Counted from the stretch's first letter, positions 9,010-19,864 are shown. The stretch: DNA of 49,834 bases from Dehalococcoidales bacterium (GCA_034430515.1 DAOUEP010000035.1:1-49834), one strand, 5' to 3'. The notes: generated by a model from the letters alone, not told the origin. Numbers and translations are program-made.

Positions 9010-12000
9010 CTGCCTCCCCCTTTCCCGCCACCGGCAGGGTGAAGCTGAACTTGGAGCCGGCCCCGGGGCGGCTTTTCACCCATATTTTCCCGCCGTGGGC
9101 CTCCACGATACCCCGGGAGATAGAAAGACCCAGTCCCGTTCCTTTCTTGCGGCCGGTGGCGACGTCTTCCACCTGATAAAAGCGGTTGAACAGCTTATCG
9201 AGGAAATCTTCGGGGATGCCGGAGCCCTCGTCGGCGACGCTGACGGTAACCTCGTCGCCGCGGTGCCGAGCCTCGATGCTGATTTTAGTCCCCTCGTCCG
9301 AGTACTTGGTGGCGTTCTCGACGAGGTTGGTCAGCACCTGGCCGACGCGCGTTTCGTCCACGTAGACCGGCGGCAGCTTGGCGGGGGCGGTTACCTCCAG
9401 CTTGTGCCGGGCGGTGAGGCTGGCGAGGTTGCCCTGGACGGATTCCAGTATCTCGGAGAGGTGGTAGACGTCCCGGTCCAGCTTGAGGGCCCCGGCGTCG
9501 AGCCGGGAGATATCCAGCAGGTCGCTGATGAGGCGCGTCAGCCGGTTGGCCTCCCGGTCTATCGTTTCCAGGAAATCGCGCTCGTCTTTCTCCTCCCACT
9601 TGACATCGGTGCGCAGCAGCGTGGAGACAAAACCCTTGATGGAGGTCAGCGGCGTGCGCAGCTCGTGGGAGATATTGGCCAGGAACTGGCTCCTTAGCTT
9701 GTCCACGTCCCGCAGCACCTCCAGCTCCCGCTCCCGTTTCTCCCTCTCCCGGATTTCGGTAATATCCGTGGTCACGAAGACGAAGCCGATGGATTCCCCC
9801 TCGGTGCCCCGCAGCGCGGCGGCGTTGAGTTCGGCGGGGAACTGGCTGCCGTCCTGCTTGAGGAGAGTGCTTTCCACCATCAGGCTCCGGCCGGTCTCCA
9901 GCATGCGTTTCAGCTGGGTCGACACCTTGGGCTGGTCGTTGGGGGCGACGAAATCCAGGAAGCTCCGGACGATGAAGTCGTCTTTCTTTTTATAGCCGTG
10001 TATGCCGACGGTGGCGCTGTTTACCTCCAGGATTTGCCCCTCTAGGTCGGCGATGAAGATTCCCTCCGGCACCGATTCGAAGGTAAGACGCAGCTTTTCC
10101 TCCGACTGGCGCAGCTTCTCGACGGCCAGCTCGCGCTCGGCGCGCATGTGCAGCGAGACTATCCCGAAGGCCAGGTCGTTGGCCAGCTCGGTGAGCAGGA
10201 TTAGCTCATCCTCGTTAAAGGTGTCCGTATCGGCGGTGTAGATGTTCAGGGCGCCCAGGGTCTTGCCTCCGGTTACCAGGGGGAGCGCCACCGAGGACAG
10301 GTAACCACGCTTCAGGGCCTCCTCGCGCCAGGCGCCGTGATAATTACCGTTGCTGGCAATATTCTGGGCGATACTCGTCTGGCCGGTCCGGATGGCCTGG
10401 CCGGTAGGCGAGCGCCCCGGTTCGGTATCGGCCCAGGTGATATTGAGCTTATCCAGGTAGCCCGAGTTATCGCCGGCGTGGGCGGCCAGGCGCACCGTTT
10501 TGGCCTCGTCGTGCTCGGCGAGGCCCACCCAGGCCAGGCGGTACTGTCCTTCTTCCACGATGACCCGGCATATTTCGTTGAGCAGGTCGTCCTCGCTGGT
10601 GGCGTGTATCAGCGCCTGATTGGAGTGGCCGAGCACGGTGAGGGCCCGGTTTACCTTGATAATCTCCGCCTCGGCCTGCTTGCGGTCGGTGATATCCAGC
10701 GAGAGGACAAAAATGCCTTTGGGCACCGGCTCAATGCTGAACTCGAACCATCGCTGCGAGCCGTCGGCGTAGGTGAAGAGGTTTTCCAGGCGGTGATGCC
10801 GGCGCTTTTCCATGCAGTCGCGGAACTTGGCGAACATCTCCGTATTCTCGATGCCGGGGTAGGCCTCCATCATGGTATGCCCCAGCAGCTTTTTCTTGGG
10901 CAGGCGGTTGTGGCTGACGGCGCTATCGTTGAGGTAGACGTAGCGCCAGTCGAAGTCGATAATCTGGCAGCCCTCCATCATGTTATCCAGGGTGACCCGG
11001 TGGCGCTCTTCCGATGTGCGCAGGTCCTCGATGGCCCGCTCTTCCCGGGTGATGTCCTTTTGCTGGCAGATGACATGGGCTACCTTGCCGTCCCCGTCCT
11101 CAACGGCCGACATCGTATATTCCAGGACGAGATGGCCGTTATTTTTAAGTTTCAGCTGCTTTTCCCGTCCGGCATCGTAGTCCAGCTTGAAGCTGGCGGT
11201 CTGGCCCTTTTTAAAGACGGCCTCCACCAGCTTACGGTAACCCTGCTGGGCTATCTGGGTATCCTTGAGGACGTTGTATTTGCCGATGACTTCTTCATCG
11301 CTCATATGCAGCATATCGCGCAGGGCCTGGTTCATGCGGATGATGTTGCCTTTGTTATCGGCTACCCAGAGGGCACTGGGGCTGTGCTCGATGAGACTAT
11401 CCAGAAACTCCTGTCGCCAGCGGAGGTCGGCCTCATTTTCCTTGAGTTCGGTGATGTCCTGCACCGTCCCCAGCGAGCGGAGCGGGTTGCCCTGGTCATC
11501 GTACTGGGTCTCGCACCTTTCCTCGACGTACTTAATCAGGCCGCCTTTCAGCCGCAGCCGGTGGATGATGTTATAAGGGGTCTTTTTCGCGAGCGACTGG
11601 ATGTAAGCCTGGTTCACCATCTCCCGGTCGCCCGGGTGGATGCTATCCAGGAAGGCCTTGTAGGTTGCCTCGAATTCCTCCGGCTTCAGACCGAACATCC
11701 GGTACACTTCGTCGGACAAGGTGAGGGTATCGGTAGTAATATCCAGCTCCCAGTTGCCGATATGGGCCAGGCGCTGGGCCTCGGCCAGCCTGGCCTGGCT
11801 CTGGCGCAGGGTTGCCTCGGCCTGCTCCCGGCTCTGGATTTCCTCGACCAGCGCCCTGGTTCGCGATCTCACCTGTCGCCGCACTAGCAGCCTGTGGCTG
11901 CCGACCAGAAGTATCGCGCCGGCCACGCCGATGATGAGCCACTTGACCCACCCCGGCACCACCGTCGTCTCGGTTGCCTCCGTCACCAGCAATTTGTCCA

Positions 12001-12196
12001 GGGCCTGGTAGTAGGCCGAGTTCGTATCCGCCCAGAATCCGGACACGTTGCCCTGGGCGTCGGTGAAAATCTTGGGGTTGTTTTCGTAGACCCCCACCCT
12101 TACCGTGAGGGCATCGTCCGCCGCCGTAGCCGCGGCGGGGAAGCAGCTGAGAAGCGGCGCCGCCAGGAGAAGCAGCCAGAAACGTTTCTTCGTCAT
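8987..12196 (-). CDS. Multi-sensor histidine kinase (signal peptide, short periplasmic stub, TM, several PAS, GAF, PAS, HisKA, HATPase)
   Basis: 1069 aa. H-box SHELRTPLTSIKGF, N/G boxes NLVENATKY, DEGSGIP and GTGLGLSI. Several PAS-like repeats and one GAF-like block. Confidence 0.9.
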   Translation of the reverse strand: MTKKRFWLLLLAAPLLSCFPAAATAADDALTVRVGVYENNPKIFTDAQGNVSGFWADTNSAYYQALDKLLVTEATETTVVPGWVKWLIIGVAGAILLVGSHRLLVRRQVRSRTRALVEEIQSREQAEATLRQSQARLAEAQRLAHIGNWELDITTDTLTLSDEVYRMFGLKPEEFEATYKAFLDSIHPGDREMVNQAYIQSLAKKTPYNIIHRLRLKGGLIKYVEERCETQYDDQGNPLRSLGTVQDITELKENEADLRWRQEFLDSLIEHSPSALWVADNKGNIIRMNQALRDMLHMSDEEVIGKYNVLKDTQIAQQGYRKLVEAVFKKGQTASFKLDYDAGREKQLKLKNNGHLVLEYTMSAVEDGDGKVAHVICQQKDITREERAIEDLRTSEERHRVTLDNMMEGCQIIDFDWRYVYLNDSAVSHNRLPKKKLLGHTMMEAYPGIENTEMFAKFRDCMEKRRHHRLENLFTYADGSQRWFEFSIEPVPKGIFVLSLDITDRKQAEAEIIKVNRALTVLGHSNQALIHATSEDDLLNEICRVIVEEGQYRLAWVGLAEHDEAKTVRLAAHAGDNSGYLDKLNITWADTEPGRSPTGQAIRTGQTSIAQNIASNGNYHGAWREEALKRGYLSSVALPLVTGGKTLGALNIYTADTDTFNEDELILLTELANDLAFGIVSLHMRAERELAVEKLRQSEEKLRLTFESVPEGIFIADLEGQILEVNSATVGIHGYKKKDDFIVRSFLDFVAPNDQPKVSTQLKRMLETGRSLMVESTLLKQDGSQFPAELNAAALRGTEGESIGFVFVTTDITEIREREKRERELEVLRDVDKLRSQFLANISHELRTPLTSIKGFVSTLLRTDVKWEEKDERDFLETIDREANRLTRLISDLLDISRLDAGALKLDRDVYHLSEILESVQGNLASLTARHKLEVTAPAKLPPVYVDETRVGQVLTNLVENATKYSDEGTKISIEARHRGDEVTVSVADEGSGIPEDFLDKLFNRFYQVEDVATGRKKGTGLGLSISRGIVEAHGGKIWVKSRPGAGSKFSFTLPVAGKGEADAQDTGD

Positions 12197-12690: not shown

Positions 12691-15354
12691 CTATTTTTTC
12701 AGTGCCGCCAGTCCCTTTTTAACCCTGTCCGGGGTGGCCGGCAGGTCGTGGATGCGCACGCCGCAGGCGTTATAGATGGCATTGGTTACCGATGGCGCCG
12801 TAGAAATCATCGTCATTTCGCCAATGCCCGTGGCGCCCAGCGTGCCGTTGGGTCGCGGGGTCTCGCGGAGGATAATCTCCATTTCCGGCATCATCTGGAT
12901 GGTCGGGAACTTGAACGTCTTCCAGTCGAGCGTCTGGCCGTGGATGTATTCCTCGCGCAGGGCGAAGCCGATACCCTGGTCCATGCCGCCCTCCAGCTGA
13001 CCCTCGACGGCCTGGGGGTTGATGATGGGGCCGGCATCGACGGCGGTGGTCATCTTGAGCACTTTGGCCTCGCCGGTTTGGGTATTCACCTCCACCTCCG
13101 CCATCTGGATGTTGTGCACGATGGACTCGTTGGAATCGCCCTGGCCGGTCTTGGGGTCCCACTTGCCGCCCTTGAGCTTCTTTTCGCCGATATAGCGGGT
13201 GGGCTTGCCGGCTTTCTCCAGGGCGGCACGGGTCTTGGCGCCGACCTCGTCCCAGGCTTTCTTAAGCTGCTCCACGGCCAGCTGCAGCGAGCCGCCGCCG
13301 ATATAGGTCATCCGGCTGCCGGCGGCCGGGCCCATGGCCACGGTCTTGCTGGTATCGCGGGTCTCCAGGCGGACTCTATCCATAGATATGCCCAGGACGT
13401 GCGCCGCAATCTGGGTCAGCATGGCGTCGTTACCCTCGCCGGGGTCGGCGATGGCGCCGAAGATGGTGACGGTATCGTCGGGGTTGACCTCGACCTCCAC
13501 GTGGCCCTGGTCGCCGGGGCCGCCGATGCCGAAGGCGTGCACCCCCAGGCCGACGCCCCGCTTGAGCTTATCGTTTTTCTGGTTAAAGGCGGCGGCGTCC
13601 TTTTTGGCCCTCTCCCAGTGGGGCTGGATGACGTCGCAGATTTCCGGGAACTCCCACTGGTCGAGCGTCGCCCCGGTGGAGCGCGGCTCGCCCGGTTTCA
13701 GCGAGTTGAGCTTGCGGAACGCCAGGCGGTCCATGCCCACCTTCTCCGCCAGCATATCGATGATGGACTCGACGCCGAAGTTGGACTGGGGCGGCCCGGC
13801 GCCGCGGGCGGCGGCACCCGGGGCGTTGCTGGTATAGACCAGCTTGCAGTTGGCCCAGACATTGGGGATTTTGTAGGCGCTGGAGAGCATGTGCAGGGTG
13901 CGGTGAATGGTCAGGCCGCCCAGGATAAAATAGGCCCCTTTATTGATGTACATATCCATCCACAGGCCGGTAAAGCGCCCGTTTTCGTCGGCGCCCATGC
14001 GGACGTTCATGATGTAAGGGTGGCGTTTGGGGCTGAGGAAAAGGGACTCGGCCAGCGAGGGGACGTAGCGTACCGGCCGCTTGAAGTGCACGCAGGCCGC
14101 CGCGGCCAGGGCCTCGGTGATGATGGCCGATTTCTGGCCGAACTGCCCGCCGGAGAAGGCCTCCAGATAGCGGGTCTTGTCCCAGCCGACCGCCTCGCCG
14201 ATGACGGCGGCGTTGGGGTGGATATTGATGCTGCGCCCGATGACGATTAGCTCGGCCTCGTCGCCTTCGCCCTCCAGATAGCAGACGGTGGTCTCCGGCT
14301 CTAGCGGGGCCTGGTGGTTGACCTGGGTGGAGAACTGCGCCGCGACCACGTATTTGGACTGGGACAGGGCCTTTTCGGCGTCGCCGAAAATCTGGGGCGT
14401 TTCCGATATCAAATTGGGAGACCAGTCGTGCAGCTTGTCAGCGCCGGGGGCCAGGGCCTCCTGGGAGGTCATGTAGTACGGCAGGGGCTCGTATTCCACC
14501 TTGACGGCGGCGGCGGCCGCCCGGGCCTGCTCGCGGGTCGCGGCGGCGACGATGGCGATGGGGTCGCCGTAAGACTTGACCATATCCTCGACCAGCAGGG
14601 GCTTGTCCGGCACGGCCTCGCGGACACGATTGGTGCCTTCGATTTCGTGATAGGTGATGATGCCCACCACGCCCGGCATTTTGGCGGCGGCGGTGGTATC
14701 AAGCGACTTGATTTTGGCGCGATGGATAAAGCAGTGGGCGCAGGCGATTTCCAGCGCGCCGTCGAAGTAGTAGTCCGCCGAGAACTTGGCCAGGCCGCAG
14801 GCCTTAATCATGGACGTGGGGCGGGGGTGCGACACGCCCATGGCCTTCTTAGGCAGGGCGGCCCTCACCTTGGCCGGGGTGGTCTCGCCGCGAAGGAATT
14901 TAGCGGCCAGCTGCACGGCGTCGACGATTTTTTTGTAGCCGGTGCACCGGCAGAGGTTGCCGGCCAGGGCTTTTTTAATATCGTCCAGGGTGGGGTTGGG
15001 GTTCTTGTCCAGCAGGGCCTTGGTGGCCATAATCATGCCGGGCGTGCAGTAGCCGCACTGGATAGCCCCGGTGAGGACGTAGGCCTCCTGAATCAGGTGC
15101 GGGTTGTCCGGCGTGCCCAGCCCCTCCACCGTGATGACCTCGGCGCCTTCCAGGTCGCTTACCTTGCGCAGGCAGGAGCGCACCGCCTTGTCGTTGACGA
15201 TGACGGTGCAGGCGCCGCACTGCCCCTTGCGGTCGCAGGACTGCTTGGTGCCGGTCAGGTGCAGGTCTTCACGCAGCAAGTCGAGCAGGACTTTTTCCGG
15301 GCCGACCTCAACCTGTTTCTTGATGCCGTTAATCGTCAGGGTAACTTTTTTCAT
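12691..15354 (-). CDS. Aldehyde oxidoreductase, Mop type (N-terminal 2x[2Fe-2S] plus molybdopterin domains, no FAD domain)
   Basis: Begins MKKVTLTINGI...CDRKGQCGACTV...GAIQCGYCTPGMIM...NLCRCTGY and continues with xanthine-dehydrogenase-family Moco domains. Its size of about 890-908 aa matches the Desulfovibrio gigas MOP architecture. The ORF track start at 15417 is an alternative. Confidence 0.85.
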   Translation of the reverse strand: MKKVTLTINGIKKQVEVGPEKVLLDLLREDLHLTGTKQSCDRKGQCGACTVIVNDKAVRSCLRKVSDLEGAEVITVEGLGTPDNPHLIQEAYVLTGAIQCGYCTPGMIMATKALLDKNPNPTLDDIKKALAGNLCRCTGYKKIVDAVQLAAKFLRGETTPAKVRAALPKKAMGVSHPRPTSMIKACGLAKFSADYYFDGALEIACAHCFIHRAKIKSLDTTAAAKMPGVVGIITYHEIEGTNRVREAVPDKPLLVEDMVKSYGDPIAIVAAATREQARAAAAAVKVEYEPLPYYMTSQEALAPGADKLHDWSPNLISETPQIFGDAEKALSQSKYVVAAQFSTQVNHQAPLEPETTVCYLEGEGDEAELIVIGRSINIHPNAAVIGEAVGWDKTRYLEAFSGGQFGQKSAIITEALAAAACVHFKRPVRYVPSLAESLFLSPKRHPYIMNVRMGADENGRFTGLWMDMYINKGAYFILGGLTIHRTLHMLSSAYKIPNVWANCKLVYTSNAPGAAARGAGPPQSNFGVESIIDMLAEKVGMDRLAFRKLNSLKPGEPRSTGATLDQWEFPEICDVIQPHWERAKKDAAAFNQKNDKLKRGVGLGVHAFGIGGPGDQGHVEVEVNPDDTVTIFGAIADPGEGNDAMLTQIAAHVLGISMDRVRLETRDTSKTVAMGPAAGSRMTYIGGGSLQLAVEQLKKAWDEVGAKTRAALEKAGKPTRYIGEKKLKGGKWDPKTGQGDSNESIVHNIQMAEVEVNTQTGEAKVLKMTTAVDAGPIINPQAVEGQLEGGMDQGIGFALREEYIHGQTLDWKTFKFPTIQMMPEMEIILRETPRPNGTLGATGIGEMTMISTAPSVTNAIYNACGVRIHDLPATPDRVKKGLAALKK

Positions 15355-15438
15355 TACTTTACCTACCTTATTTTTTACGCTATCTGGTACGGTTGTATTA
15401 AAATATAGCGTTTTCAACTGAAAAATGTCAAAAAGGAG

Positions 15439-17430
15439 TTATCCCATCTCCGTTTTCCTCAGCTTTTCCAGCTCGCTCTCCAGCTCCCCACTTAGCTTTT
15501 CGACCCGGGCGCTCAGGTCTTGCCGCTGGCCGGTAAGCGAACCGATTCGCTCCTTGAGCGCGTGGTACTCCCGGCTGGTCTCGCCGACCCTGGCGCCGTC
15601 TTTGTAGTGCTCCGGGTCTGCCAGCCGCGCCTCGACCTCGCTCAGGCGCCGGTTGAGGGCGGTAAGCTCGCTGGCCACGGCGGCGGCTTGCTGTTTCAGG
15701 GGGGTTATGCGGCGGCTGTATTCGTTCCGCAGATTCCCTTCCAGGGTCTTGCGCTGGCGGCCCTTGCGGGCGCCGCCGGAACGATTGTCGCGGGATGCGG
15801 CCCGCACCGGCTGGGGGACGTCCGCGGCCCGCGGCTCCCTGGCATACAGGTAATCGTCGTAGCCGCCGGGGAAGACCCGTATTCGGCCCTCGTTTACCTC
15901 GATTATCTGGTTGGCCACCTCGCGTATCAGGGTGCGGTCGTGGGTGATGAGGCAAATCGTCCCCGTGTAGGCCTGGAGGGCGTCGGTGAGTATCTCGCGG
16001 GAGGGGATATCCAGGTGGTTGGTCGGCTCGTCGAGGAGGAGGAAGTTGGCCGGGTGAGCCAGCATCCGGGCCAGGGCCACCCGCGTCTTTTCCCCGCCGG
16101 AGAGCACGCCCACCTTTTTGTAGACGTCCTCCCCGCTGAAGAGGAAGGCCCCCAGCAGGCCCCGCAGGCGCTGCTCCGGCTCGTCCGGGGCGACCCGCCG
16201 GATTTCCTCAAGGAGGTTATTGGCCGGGTCGAGCAGCTCGATATAGTACTGGGCGAAATAGGCCGTCCCCACATTATGCCCCAGGGCGCGCCGGCCTTTC
16301 TCGAAGGGCAGCACCCCGGCCAGCATCCTGAGCAGGGTGGTCTTGCCGGCCCCGTTGGGGCCCACCAGCGCCGCCTTGTCGCCGCGGCTCAGGGTCAGGT
16401 CGAGGTCGCGGTAGACCGGTTTGTCGCCGTAAGATTTGGCGATGCCTTCCAGCGTGATAACGGTATGGCCGCTGCGCCGCGGCTCGGGGAAGGCAAAGCG
16501 GATTTTCGGCGTGGCGCGCGGCACGACCACCCGCTCCATCCTGGCCAGCTGCTTCAGCCGGCTCTGCACCTGGGTGGCCTTGGTGTTCTTGGCGCGGAAC
16601 CGCTCGATGAAGCGCATCTCTTTCTTGAGCCGGGCCTCCTGCCTTTTGGCCTGCGCCCGGCGGATGGCCGCTTCCTTCTGGCGGGCCAGGACATAATCGT
16701 CGTAGTCCCCGGTGAAGAAGATGACCTCGTCGCGCTCGATGGCCATGATTTTCCCGGCGACGTTGTTCAGGAAGGCCCGGTCGTGGGAGGTAACCAAGAC
16801 CGCCCCGTGATAGCCCTTGAGATAGCTCTCGAACCAGGCTATCGTCTCCAGGTCGAGGTGATTGGTCGGCTCGTCCAGGATGAGGACGTCGGGATTGAGG
16901 AAGAGGAGCTTGGCCAGCTCGATGCGCGTGTGCCAGCCGCCGCTGAACTCGGCTAGGGAACGCCGGAAGTCGACCTCGGTAAAGCCCAGGCCGGCCAGGA
17001 TTAACTTGGCCTCGTGCTCGGCGTTGTAGCCGCCGCTCCCCTCGAACTCGCTCTGGAGCTCGCCGAGGTCGGCCAGCAGCGCGGCGATATTCCCGGCGTC
17101 TTTCTCCTCGGCCAGCTCCTCCTGGAGCAGCCGGATTTTGTGGGCCAGGTCGCTCACGGCGCCGGCGGCGCCGACCACCTCGTCGAGCAGGCGACTGCGG
17201 GAGGTGGGCCGGATATCCTGCCGCAGGTAGCCGATGGAGGTGCCGCGGCGCACCGAGATGGAGCCGGAGTCCGGGCTGATATGGCCGGCGATGATTTCGA
17301 AGAGGGTCGTTTTGCCGGTGCCGTTGGCGCCGATGACGGCGATGCGGTCTTTCATCCCGACGGTAAAGCTGACATCGGAAAAGAGGTAGCGCTGGTTATA
17401 TGACTTGGATATATTATTGATGCTTAGCAT
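15439..17430 (-). CDS. ABC-F family ATPase (two ABC cassettes, linker, C-terminal coiled coil)
   Basis: 663 aa. Two Walker A motifs ([18 protein letters not shown]), two LSGG signatures and no TM domain. The R/K/E-rich C-terminal helix resembles Uup/YheS-type proteins. Confidence 0.9.
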
Positions 17431-17473: not shown

Positions 17474-17500
17474 AAAAAAGCCCAGGGTTATCGCCTGGGC
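17474..17500 (-). terminator. Intrinsic terminator (attenuator) in the ABC-F leader
   Basis: Minus strand GCCCAGG-cgataac-CCTGGGC followed by TTTTTT, about 45 nt upstream of the ABC-F ATG. Confidence 0.7.
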
Positions 17501-17525
17501 TCGGATTGCGTTTTTCCGGTGGTTC

Positions 17526-17642
17526 TTACGCCGTATCTACCTGAAAAAGGACGCACCGAGCCCTTGGCGACGCCGCCGCCGGTATGGCCACGATTACCGC
17601 GCTCATCCGGCTGCCGCTATTTATTTGACTCAGTAAACGCAT
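17526..17642 (-). CDS. Candidate 38-codon leader ORF (MRLLSQINSGSRMSAVIVAIPAAASPRARCVLFQVDTA)
   Basis: ATG is preceded by GAAGGGA. Its 3-prime third overlaps the 5-prime strand of a putative antiterminator helix. It is below the ORF-track length cutoff. Confidence 0.4.
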   Translation of the reverse strand: MRLLSQINSGSRMSAVIVAIPAAASPRARCVLFQVDTA

Positions 17643-17671
17643 CGGAGTTCCCTTCGGCAGAAGTACGGGTA

Positions 17672-17701
17672 ATTATATTATGGGGGCAAGGGGGTTGTCA
17701 A
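17672..17701 (-). promoter_or_regulatory. Near-consensus sigma70-type promoter for the ABC-F leader
   Basis: Minus strand TTGACA (17696-17701), 18-nt spacer, TATAAT (17672-17677), starting 15 nt after the tRNA-Arg 3-prime end. Confidence 0.6.
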
Positions 17702-17715
17702 TGCTCGGAAAGGAG

Positions 17716-17790
17716 TGGTACCCCTGGTGCGACTCGAACGCACGCACGCGGTTTAGGAAACCGCTGCTCTATCCTCTGAGCTACAGGGGC
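17716..17790 (-). tRNA. tRNA-Arg (anticodon CCT)
   Basis: The reverse complement is GCCCCTGTAGCTCAGAGGATAGAGCAGCGGTTTCCTAAACCGCGTGCGTGCGTTCGAGTCGCACCAGGGGTACCA. 75 nt, anticodon loop TTCCTAA, CCA encoded, G1-U72 wobble. Confidence 0.9.
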
Positions 17791-17853: not shown

Positions 17854-18261
17854 TTAGTCGGTGCGGTGGCCGGTGAGCGAGACCGCCATGCAGACGTAGG
17901 GCTTGTCGATGCGCTTGGTAACGATGGGGCAGTGGTAGAGGCCGGCCGGGGCCACCAGCACGGTGGGCTTATCAAAGGTATGTTTTTCCTCCTGGCCCGG
18001 CGCGCCGACGGATACCTCCACCTCGGCGCCCAGCTCGTCGAGGTGGGCCGGGTCGGAGCCGATGAAGAAAACGGCCTCGTCGTACCGGTGCACGTGGGGC
18101 TTGGTGGAGAGGCCGGTGATGCCCGTTTCGTAGGCGCAGGCGTAAATGACGTTGAGGTTGAGGCCCCCCAGCACCTCGCCGCCGGTGGCGAACAGGGCCC
18201 CGTTGGGCGTCTGGTGGAAGGGGATGGTTACCAGGTTTTTAGCGTATTTGGTTTCGGCCAT
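17854..18261 (-). CDS. Small metal-binding cupin of unknown function
   Basis: 135 aa. Cupin motif 1 HVHRYDEAVFFIG and motif 2 APAGLYHCP. Paralog of 44154..44588. Starts 2 nt after the upstream DUF169 gene. Confidence 0.65.
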   Translation of the reverse strand: MAETKYAKNLVTIPFHQTPNGALFATGGEVLGGLNLNVIYACAYETGITGLSTKPHVHRYDEAVFFIGSDPAHLDELGAEVEVSVGAPGQEEKHTFDKPTVLVAPAGLYHCPIVTKRIDKPYVCMAVSLTGHRTD

Positions 18262-18263
18262 GT

Positions 18264-19019
18264 CTATTCCTCGATTCTCTTTCTCAGGTCTTTCAGCAGC
18301 TGGTTGACGCGCTTACGGTGGGCCGGTCCGCCCGGGCCCGGCGGGGTGGGCTTGGCGTCGATTGCCTTGAGGTTATCCAGCGCGATGGGGAGCACCTGGA
18401 AAGGTATTGAGATGATGAACAGCCCCGGCGGGAAGATATTGAGCTCCTGCATGCCCAGCCCCAGGCCGGTGATGAAGTAGTTCAGCTCGCCGCTGACGAC
18501 GGGGTAGACGTAAATCCAGGCGCAGGCCACTACCGGCGTCGACCGGCTCACGTAAGGCCGGCCGGTGGAGTAGTTGACCGAGCGCAGCAGCACCTGGGCC
18601 TGCGAGACGTCGGCGACCACGATGAGTAAATCGGGGTCGAAGGTAAGCTCGGGGAGCGGCGCGAAGGCCACGTAATGCACCGAGCCTTCGGGCAGGCGGG
18701 GCAGGTACTGGTACATGGCGCGGCAGGCGCTGTTATCGCGGTAGAGTCCCTCGTCCCCGCCCAGCATCCCGGTAACCAGCGCCGGCTCCGGGTCTTCCAT
18801 GCCCAGTATCATCTGCTCCACGCCCACGCAGACCCAGTCCTCCGGCGCCACGTAAAAGGCGCCGTTCTCCTGCGCCTCCTTGAGCATCTCGCAGAAGTTG
18901 ACCTCCTTGCTTATTCGGGGGATGCCTTCCGGCCGGGCGGCGAGGAACTTGACCCCCACCGGCGGGCGCGCGAAGTTGAACTTGTCCAGTACCGAGTAGT
19001 CCCTGGTCTTGGCGCTCAT
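18264..19019 (-). CDS. DUF169 (COG2043)-like protein
   Basis: 251 aa. N-terminal PPVGVKF ... FCEM pattern, YVAFAPL and FDPDLLI. SD AGGAGG. Paralogs at 19042..19785 and 36905..37657. Confidence 0.6.
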   Translation of the reverse strand: MSAKTRDYSVLDKFNFARPPVGVKFLAARPEGIPRISKEVNFCEMLKEAQENGAFYVAPEDWVCVGVEQMILGMEDPEPALVTGMLGGDEGLYRDNSACRAMYQYLPRLPEGSVHYVAFAPLPELTFDPDLLIVVADVSQAQVLLRSVNYSTGRPYVSRSTPVVACAWIYVYPVVSGELNYFITGLGLGMQELNIFPPGLFIISIPFQVLPIALDNLKAIDAKPTPPGPGGPAHRKRVNQLLKDLRKRIEE

Positions 19020-19041
19020 TTTAGCCTCCTGTTAGTGCGTC

Positions 19042-19785
19042 TCAGGACTCTTTTTCCAGCTTGCCGACAATGCGGCGTATCTTCTGCTTGTGCCCCTCCG
19101 CCCCCAGCCGAAACGACTCCGGCTCCCACTCCATTTCAGCGAGGTTCTGCATCATGCCGGGGAGCTTGTCCCAGGGGATGGAGATGAGCATGCGGCCCTC
19201 CGGGAAGAGCCGCCGCGCCTTCATGCCGAAACCCAGGCCGGTAACGGTGAGGTTGACCTCGCCGGTGAGGTAGGGCTTGAGGTAGAGCCAGGTGCAGCCG
19301 GCCACCGGCGTGCCTTCCGCCGACCAGGTCTCGCCGGTGGTGTAGCCCTTGGCGCGCAGCAGTATCTCGGCCTGGCTTACCGTGGCCATGATAATGAGCA
19401 GGTCGGGGTCAAAGCTGAGTTTGTCCAGCGGCGCGAAGGCGACGTAGCGCACCGAGTTGTGGGCCAGGCGGGGCAGGTACTGGTAGATGCGGCGGTTGGC
19501 ACGGGGATCCTTGTAGGCGCCCAGCGCCGGCCCGACGCGCCCGCTTTCGAAGACGGTGTCCCCCTCCACCATGCCCAGCATCAGCGGGCCGATGCAGGTG
19601 AAGTCCTCCCGGGTCACGTAGAAGGCCCGGCCCTGCTGCGCCTCGGCCAGCATCTCGCAGAAGTCCAGCACCTTGCCCGGCCGCTGGATGCCTTCAGGCT
19701 TAGTTGAGGTGAACTTGACGCCCACCGGCGGGCGCTCGAAATCAAACTTCTTGAGAATGGCGAGTTCCTTGGGGATGGGGCTCAT
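19042..19785 (-). CDS. DUF169 (COG2043)-like protein
   Basis: ATG at 19785 with GGAGG 5 nt upstream (the track start at 19800 is a TTG). PPVGVKF, FCEM, YVAFAPL and FDPDLLI. Confidence 0.6.
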   Translation of the reverse strand: MSPIPKELAILKKFDFERPPVGVKFTSTKPEGIQRPGKVLDFCEMLAEAQQGRAFYVTREDFTCIGPLMLGMVEGDTVFESGRVGPALGAYKDPRANRRIYQYLPRLAHNSVRYVAFAPLDKLSFDPDLLIIMATVSQAEILLRAKGYTTGETWSAEGTPVAGCTWLYLKPYLTGEVNLTVTGLGFGMKARRLFPEGRMLISIPWDKLPGMMQNLAEMEWEPESFRLGAEGHKQKIRRIVGKLEKES

Positions 19786-19864
19786 GGCAACCTCCAACAA
19801 GAGTAGTATTGGTAACCCAATTATAGTCGCATCGCCGGAGGTTTGGCAAAAATGGGGTAGCCTG

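Follow-up and report, generated by a model that had tools for sequence, protein, structure and literature searches.

A conserved ribosome-dependent transcription attenuator is predicted upstream of a YheS/YdiF-like ABC-F gene in uncultured Dehalococcoidia

What decides whether RNA polymerase reaches an ABC-F gene that has no promoter directly in front of it? In a 49,834-nt stretch of DNA from a Dehalococcoidales bacterium (GCA_034430515.1, DAOUEP010000035.1:1-49834; below, the window), a gene for a 663-aa ABC-F ATPase (15439-17430, minus strand, as are all the leader elements below) carries its own Shine-Dalgarno sequence (GAGGGA, 17446-17441), and a promoter scan found no promoter-like site in the 43-nt gap that separates its ATG (17430) from an intrinsic terminator. 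The terminator (17474-17502) consists of a 9-bp stem, GAGCCCAGG/CCUGGGCUU (17502-17478), with a 7-nt loop and a U6 tract (T6 in the DNA, 17479-17474), and the 43 nt are counted from the U6 tract behind the stem GAGCCCAGG/CCTGGGCTT; the hairpin has a folding energy of -16.0 kcal/mol. Further upstream lies a sigma-70-type promoter (17672-17701; TTGACA 17701-17696, spacer of 18 nt, TATAAT 17677-17672), the single site with a 12/12 match within the 4 kb scanned, where seven promoter-like sites of at least 9/12 were seen and 0.7 were expected. Between promoter and terminator is a 38-codon open reading frame (ORF), MRLLSQINSGSRMSAVIVAIPAAASPRARCVLFQVDTA (17526-17642; ATG at 17642, TAA at 17528-17526), with the Shine-Dalgarno sequence GAAGGGA (17649-17655) read directly from the sequence 6 nt 5' of the ATG. 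An earlier, sequence-only reading of this DNA had placed the promoter next to a tRNA-Arg gene, the small ORF and the GC hairpin with its U6 tract at these positions, and all of them are confirmed. We conclude that this region of ~190 nt is probably a ribosome-dependent transcription attenuator built of four RNA segments, which controls the ABC-F gene.

The case for a switch begins with the folding of the window leader. The sequence-only reading had proposed an alternative helix of about 18 bp, and this helix is present in the RNAfold minimum-free-energy structure. Segment B (GGGCUCGGUGCGU + CCUUUUUC, 17543-17563), which lies inside the ORF and encodes RARCV, pairs with segment C (GGAAAAACGCAAUCCGAGCCC, 17497-17517) through GGGCUCGG:CCGAGCCC (8 bp), UGCGU:ACGCA (5 bp) and UUUUC:GAAAA (5 bp), 18 bp in total. 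The last 6 nt of C, GAGCCC, are also the base of the 5' arm of the terminator; an overlap of 4 nt, as first reported, is correct for the 7-bp GC core, but it becomes 6 nt for the full 9-bp stem. The B:C duplex of the window has an energy of -28.6 kcal/mol, compared with -16.5 ± 3.4 for shuffled sequences, and 1 of 300 shuffles is as strong. With these two helices alone, readthrough would be the default state of a leader that is not translated. Comparison of homologues revealed a third helix, as segment A (17627-17643) resembles segment C and both are complementary to B. In the window, G-AUG-C, which holds the start codon (17643-17639), and ACUGAGUC (codons 3-5, 17634-17627) pair with GGCUCGGU-GCGUC (17562-17550), enclosing a mid-ORF hairpin that separates A from B (hairpin P, 17572-17617; dG -25.9, z = -2.15) and forms each time the window leader is folded. 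When the window transcript is cut after B, A pairs with B through 12-13 bp; the duplex energy is -17.1 kcal/mol against -10.3 ± 2.7 for shuffled sequences, with 5 of 300 as strong. By occupying the 5' strand of the antiterminator, the start-codon region gives the leader the OFF state that the other two helices lack. Segment B is thus shared by two helices that exclude each other, as the 3' strand of an anti-antiterminator (A:B) and the 5' strand of an antiterminator (B:C), and segment C is in turn shared with the terminator.

Is this arrangement conserved? A protein-guided scan with one genome per species gave 80 loci with ABC-F orthologues (57-72% identity), nearly all from metagenome-assembled genomes (MAGs) of Dehalococcoidia/Dehalococcoidales. 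The whole unit is found in at least 15 sequences besides the window, 12 from the 80 orthologue loci and three from metagenome contigs, which brings the family to at least 16 leaders: 11 lie directly 5' of an ABC-F gene, four precede a GNAT-ABC-F operon and one precedes a gene for an Rdx selenoprotein. In eight orthologue loci, a complete promoter, Shine-Dalgarno sequence, ORF and terminator stand directly 5' of the ABC-F gene (variant 1). The other four (variant 2; L064 2140-2373, L074 2137-2373, L075 2137-2368 and L080 1575-1806) have a diverged leader whose peptides end in SRAYCVRFTKKT, followed by a 184-aa GNAT gene (Acetyltransf_3, RimJ/RimL-like) and then by the ABC-F gene, an order that suggests co-regulation of acetyltransferase and ABC-F in this clade. 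The contigs come from a metagenome scan with a DNA pattern, in which the matches listed were mostly chance; among them, L098 and L169 are ABC-F leaders, L132 is the Rdx leader and L113 is identical to L026. L132 (2243-2461, 2496-2714; peptide MNSKIQLSLSIIHRTTTPGRARCVSGSELIIN) is downstream of an L-aspartate-oxidase-like gene and 5' of an Rdx/SelW-like gene whose reading frame contains a TGA (CAP-U motif), so the leader is not tied to ABC-F genes. A TTGACA and a TATAAT-like hexamer are at the same position in all 16 leaders, the homologues have an AGG/GGA-rich motif ahead of the leader start codon, and the ORF of the eight variant-1 orthologue loci has 31-38 codons.

Over the 80 loci, a strong terminator within 400 nt 5' of the ABC-F start occurs solely in the eight that have the leader directly in front; the remaining orthologue loci gave three weak terminator hits of unrelated sequence, one of them inside a tRNA. 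Many of the leaderless loci that were inspected have a TGTATAAT-type promoter near the ABC-F start codon. A neighbour-joining tree mixes genes with and without the leader, those with it occupying three separate places, which argues that losses or gains of the leader have occurred repeatedly. The covariance model of the 3' half of the leader detects a single copy in the window, and its hits in the 80 loci added no convincing copy to those already known. The next hit in the window (11993-12083, 13.8 bits) was rejected as chance, having on inspection no promoter, Shine-Dalgarno-led ORF or terminator.

Other elements were seen at the orthologous loci. At L073 (1760-1977), a different promoter-ORF-terminator unit with the peptide MINWNICKGQTINTGAGKPGAGYIPI scores a marginal 18.6 bits with the 3' model and precedes an apparent three-gene operon of an 85-aa ORF, a 183-aa ORF and the ABC-F gene; judging by eye, we take the 85-aa product to be of the 4-oxalocrotonate-tautomerase type and the 183-aa product to be GNAT-like. 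Nine leaderless loci (L051, L053, L055, L058, L059, L061, L063, L067 and L076) share a conserved element of ~90 nt, GGCTGATTGTTACCCCTAATCCTG...GATTGATTAGGACC, located ~110-220 nt 5' of the ABC-F start and just upstream of a TTGACA-N17-TACAAT promoter; the L058 locus has no Rfam match.

Folding of all 16 leaders gives a picture similar to that of the window. Transcripts that end after B form A:B in 14 leaders (6-18 bp), those that end after C, with 30 nt around the start codon masked, form B:C in every leader (7-18 bp), and masking of B leaves the terminator in 14/16. In 15 of the leaders, no more than 7 of 300 shuffles are as strong as the B:C duplex, and in nine, no more than 9 of 300 are as strong as A:B. 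The sequence-only reading required that the two conformers be competitive, and they are: in the window, the fold with the terminator forced has -71.4 kcal/mol and that with the antiterminator forced -74.9 kcal/mol, while over the 16 leaders the difference ranges from -12.9 to +3.5 kcal/mol. The terminator-forced folds also hold A:B in 14/16 leaders. As the two states are competitive in energy, the choice between them must be kinetic, set by the first partner available to B. A hairpin is present at the position of hairpin P in most homologues, with weak statistical support in several. We also note that directly after the B core comes a U-run, CCUUUUUC (17543-17550), so that A:B together with this run looks like a signal for pausing or weak termination; such a run is seen in only ~5 of the 16 leaders, and in the window it is also part of the antiterminator.

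The helices have been preserved through changes on both strands. In a MAFFT alignment of the full leaders, hairpin P and the start-codon sub-helix of A:B fall out of register between ATG- and GTG-type leaders and were for this reason judged sequence by sequence rather than by column counts. For the antiterminator, 89% of the cells are paired in the alignment of 16 sequences, compared with at most 41.5% when the partner strand is slid, and its covariation score exceeds those of all 500 shuffles. Four of its pairs have changed on both sides (CG in 11 and UA in 4; CG in 8 and UA in 5; AU in 10, GU in 2 and GC in 1; UA in 9, CG in 1 and UG in 1). In the terminator, again over 16 sequences, 94% of the cells are paired, and the pair 84:99 is AU in seven sequences and GC in five. 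For the A:B core and terminator in the 12 variant-1 sequences, the paired share of cells is 88%, compared with no more than 61% for slid partners, and 5 of 500 shuffles score as high. At the level of single sequences, a U-to-C change in B of L001 is offset by an A-to-G change in A. The first base of the start codon pairs with b13, the second base of the codon that follows Cys; this codon is GUC (Val) in 8/9 ATG leaders and GCC (Ala) in 4/4 GTG leaders. Within segment B, GGGC, UG and G are invariant in 16/16 sequences. Compensatory changes thus appear to support all three helices, with modest statistical support for covariation, and the leader ORF and both helices first noticed in the window are conserved in the orthologous leaders.

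These elements suggest the following mechanism. Transcription would start ~7 nt after TATAAT and, when terminated, would end at about 17474. Segment A (start codon and codons 2-5) would pair with segment B (codons ~27-33) around hairpin P to form the anti-antiterminator; if B pairs with C instead, the antiterminator would form, and C, through GAGCCC, would be withheld from the terminator hairpin C:D. With no ribosome on the leader, A:B would form as soon as B is made, leaving C free for D, and transcription would stop at U6. A ribosome that keeps up with the polymerase would, by the time D leaves the polymerase, cover B or have reached the stop codon, which lies in the B-C loop; B:C would be blocked and termination would follow. 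A ribosome held in approximately the first 20 codons would sit on or just past A, where it blocks A:B; B:C would then form and the ABC-F gene would be read. Given these three ribosome states, expression would report ribosomes that initiate yet lag the polymerase, for which a translation inhibitor or general translation stress would be the likely causes. The sequence-only reading had argued that a ribosome stalled early leaves the antiterminator intact, a logic that our data support, but its account was incomplete in that it missed the anti-antiterminator. It had also argued that a ribosome finishing the ORF allows termination by covering the upstream strand. The outcome stands, but at the stop codon the core of this strand (17563-17551) is uncovered, since it ends 23 nt before the leader stop; the ribosome there would occupy the loop between the strands. 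The distance from the leader stop to the AGCCC of segment C is always 24-35 nt. The feature is real and conserved over a clade of uncultured Dehalococcoidia, and, to judge by its sequence, it would work like the known ribosome-dependent attenuators of ABC-F genes.

The proposed mechanism depends on a ribosome, and the Shine-Dalgarno sequence, the start codons and the open frame suggest, indirectly, that the ORF may be translated. Its frame is open through segment B in 15/16 leaders, with ATG, GTG or TTG as the only starts, whereas across this stretch the other two frames together have 1-5 stops; shuffled sequences keep the frame open in 17-44% of cases. The only common part of the peptides is the C-terminal [S/P]-R-A-x-C-[V/A], which is what segment B encodes. 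The N-terminal halves are unconserved, so nothing suggests a sequence-specific stalling peptide. A search of protein databases with a padded profile of the leader peptides found no homologous annotated protein; the lone hit, at E = 9, is a REP-like repeat beside an IalB gene and was rejected as unrelated.

Alternatively, the shared motif might arrest the ribosome as a nascent peptide, its R-A core recalling the RAGP of SecM, with relief by the YheS-like ABC-F; this would make an autoregulatory loop in which the peptide is a monitoring substrate of its factor. The Ala and Cys are invariant and the Arg is found in 13/15 aligned leader peptides, and E. coli YheS, the closest solved relative, releases SecM-arrested ribosomes (PMC11162784, PMC13249984). 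However, the motif lies in segment B, whose sequence has to pair with A as well as with C. Each of the four nucleotides is found as first base of the "Arg" codon (AGG, CGG, TGG for Trp and GGG for Gly), the x codon covaries with segment C, and the choice of Val or Ala follows the start codon, all of which argues that the conservation of the motif comes from RNA pairing rather than from peptide function. The RAGP/RAPP core of SecM and Apd is also absent, as only R-A is in common, followed by R/Q/Y and then C. Moreover, folding with a ribosome placed on B predicts that a ribosome arrested at the motif would cover B and favour termination, not induction. We therefore regard an arrest peptide as quite improbable. 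An attenuator that senses the supply of an amino acid or tRNA, with early stalls at hungry or rare codons such as the Ile/Val/Ala-rich stretch or the conserved AGC-CGG-AUA, would share the geometry of trp- and ilv-type attenuators, and codons 12-24 of variant 1 are indeed rich in Ile, Val, Ala and Thr, most leaders of this variant carrying CGG-AUA. Yet there are no runs of codons, the composition is absent from variant 2 and L132, the downstream genes are not biosynthetic, and the stretch coincides with hairpin P, so that RNA constraints explain it; we give this explanation very little weight.

The remaining explanations do without the ribosome or without the ABC-F gene. In a riboswitch that binds a metabolite or protein through hairpin P and a conserved internal loop, the ORF would be incidental. 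Such a switch would fit with the recurrence of hairpin P, flanked by conserved GCAGCCGGAUAA and CCAUAUC, in variant 1, and with the presence of the family 5' of three unrelated gene types. What makes it improbable is the ORF: a Shine-Dalgarno-led ATG, GTG or TTG is at a fixed place that is itself part of A:B, and the frame is kept open through B while the others are interrupted. In addition, the sequence of hairpin P differs between variants 1 and 2, and an Rfam scan of the leader gave nothing better than E = 3.6 apart from the neighbouring tRNA, with no match at the gathering threshold for four homologous leaders. Finally, a complete promoter-ORF-terminator unit of this size could be self-sufficient, as an independent gene for a small protein or small RNA with no regulatory tie to the ABC-F gene. 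Against this, the 43-nt gap offers the ABC-F gene no promoter, the unit is always immediately 5' of a gene and co-oriented with it, the peptide is poorly conserved outside B and has no annotated homologue, and a conserved helix that destroys the terminator would be purposeless. A stand-alone gene is the least probable of these explanations.

Several observations weigh against the ribosome-dependent attenuator and temper our confidence in it. The covariation comes from just 15 distinct, related sequences, whose relatedness alone could exceed the shuffle control, and the core GGGCU:AGCCC never varies. The A:B helix is weak in L018, L026, L029, L031, L169 and L064, where 23-48 of 300 shuffles match it, and is missing from the cut-after-B fold in L029 and L064. 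When A is masked in the full-length leader, the terminator stays in the minimum-free-energy structure in about half of the leaders, which again means that the switch must be kinetic. The RNA ends and the translation of the ORF are predictions, as are the timing of events and the signal that would stall the ribosome. The L132 leader precedes an Rdx selenoprotein gene, not an ABC-F gene, and the signal may not concern ABC-F specifically. In variant 2, AAGGAG is ~15 nt from the ATG, and in L031 (2125-2346) the TTG proximal to the Shine-Dalgarno sequence is directly followed by TAA, making a start-stop. The RAQC frame of L031 opens solely from an internal ATG that has no Shine-Dalgarno sequence; this leader may be decayed, contain a MAG error or represent a minimal-ORF variant.

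What kind of ABC-F would be controlled in this way? Pfam identifies two ABC_tran domains, the ABC_tran_Xtn linker and a weak C-terminal coiled-coil domain. Among solved structures, E. coli YheS is the closest (362 bits), followed by YbiT, Uup and EttA, with PoxtA, VmlR, LsaA and MsrE lower. The protein is 34% identical to E. coli YheS over 608 residues, without an indel in the interdomain linker, and both have a C-terminal extension. None of the models for the antibiotic-resistance (ARE) subfamilies (Vga, Msr, Lsa, Sal, OptrA, CplR and the producer type) was passed, with scores of 177-317 bits against cut-offs of 680-1450. The generic "ribosomal protection-like" model NF000355 is passed (428 bits), but we rejected it as evidence for ARE since E. 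coli YheS passes as well (432 bits). The YheS equivalog NF007921 is not passed (402 bits against a cut-off of 917), though the architecture is shared. The protein is thus best described as YheS/YdiF-like, which agrees with the first impression of a Uup/YheS-like length and C-terminal coiled coil; it matches no known ARE subfamily. YdiF is a broad, polyphyletic class of ABC-F proteins in the scheme of Murina et al. (PMC6723617). In E. coli, expression of yheS appears repressed, and its regulation is described as unknown or unstudied (PMC11162784).

Leader-peptide attenuators are the standard route by which resistance-type ABC-F genes are induced and have been documented in Firmicutes and Actinobacteria. 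In B. subtilis vmlR, it has been shown experimentally that an antibiotic-stalled ribosome on an upstream ORF (uORF) inside the anti-antiterminator lets the antiterminator form, and the order of elements 5' of the ABC-F gene is the same as here: promoter, Shine-Dalgarno-led uORF, anti-antiterminator, antiterminator and terminator (PMC9226507). There is, however, no sequence similarity. The vmlR uORF has three codons (MIN) and lies inside SL-1, whereas the ORF here, with its 31-38 codons, runs from the 5' strand of the anti-antiterminator through the 3' strand. The present leader also has no hairpin that sequesters the Shine-Dalgarno sequence before the ABC-F gene, and VmlR is an ARE2 resistance factor, unlike the YheS/YdiF-like protein encoded here. 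The vmlR leader is further subject to NusG-dependent pausing and (p)ppGpp effects. The logic is also that of the E. coli trp and ilv attenuators, which have four segments with the same exclusivity (1:2, 2:3, 3:4), a ribosome on segment 1 favouring 2:3 and an absent or fast ribosome leading to termination through 3:4. In contrast to these, there is no run of regulatory codons here, the ORF runs through segment 2 rather than stopping before it, the start codon is itself paired in 1:2, and the target is a translation factor instead of a biosynthetic operon. Among other ARE ABC-F and erm systems, msrD/MsrDL, vga(A), lmrC and ermC likewise use a short translated leader to sense drug-stalled ribosomes and switch RNA structure; they involve drug-specific stalling peptides and proven resistance genes, while here the N-terminal peptide is unconserved.

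With regard to the neighbourhood, the tRNA-Arg(CCT) gene (17716-17790, minus strand), which reads AGG and is the only Rfam match, ends 14 nt before the leader promoter. A link between this tRNA and the AGG codon of the leader in segment B was considered and rejected, as none of 15 homologous loci has a tRNA nearby; its adjacency looks coincidental. Upstream of the tRNA, at 17854-19800 on the minus strand, are a 135-aa ORF without a Pfam match and tandem ORFs of 251 and 252 aa; the ORF at 18264-19019 is DUF169 by Pfam, and that at 19042-19800 looks paralogous to it by eye. On the other side, a promoter-like site with an 11/12 match (TTGACA-18-TATATT, 15402-15431, minus strand) overlies the final codons of the ABC-F gene, stop codon included. 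Just downstream of this site is a 908-aa ORF (12691-15417), presumably, from the look of its sequence, a molybdopterin aldehyde oxidoreductase, which may be transcribed independently of the attenuator.

A full-text literature search for Dehalococcoidia with ABC-F returned no paper, and we found no description of this leader. The same attenuator logic that serves resistance genes elsewhere is now seen in uncultured Dehalococcoidia (Chloroflexota), before a housekeeping-looking ABC-F of the YheS/YdiF type. The phylum, the housekeeping type of the ABC-F, and the reuse of the leader before a GNAT acetyltransferase and an Rdx selenoprotein make this more than a routine instance. The leader is a compact RNA family of ~190 nt outside Rfam, with clear helices that can be tested, and close orthologues that alternate between the attenuated and the plain-promoter arrangement provide a natural experiment on inducible versus constitutive expression. 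The ABC-F and the acetyltransferase that appears to be co-regulated with it are flagged by the leader as candidate factors of a translation-stress response or of inducible ribosome protection. More speculatively, and as an idea we hold only tentatively, Dehalococcoidia may have a small "lagging-ribosome" regulon marked by these leaders, comprising the YheS/YdiF-type ABC-F and, in other lineages, the RimJ/RimL-like GNAT and the Rdx selenoprotein, in which the ABC-F would be either an unrecognised class of inducible ribosome-protection factor of uncultured anaerobes or the first housekeeping-type ABC-F whose level is set by the sensing of translation stress.

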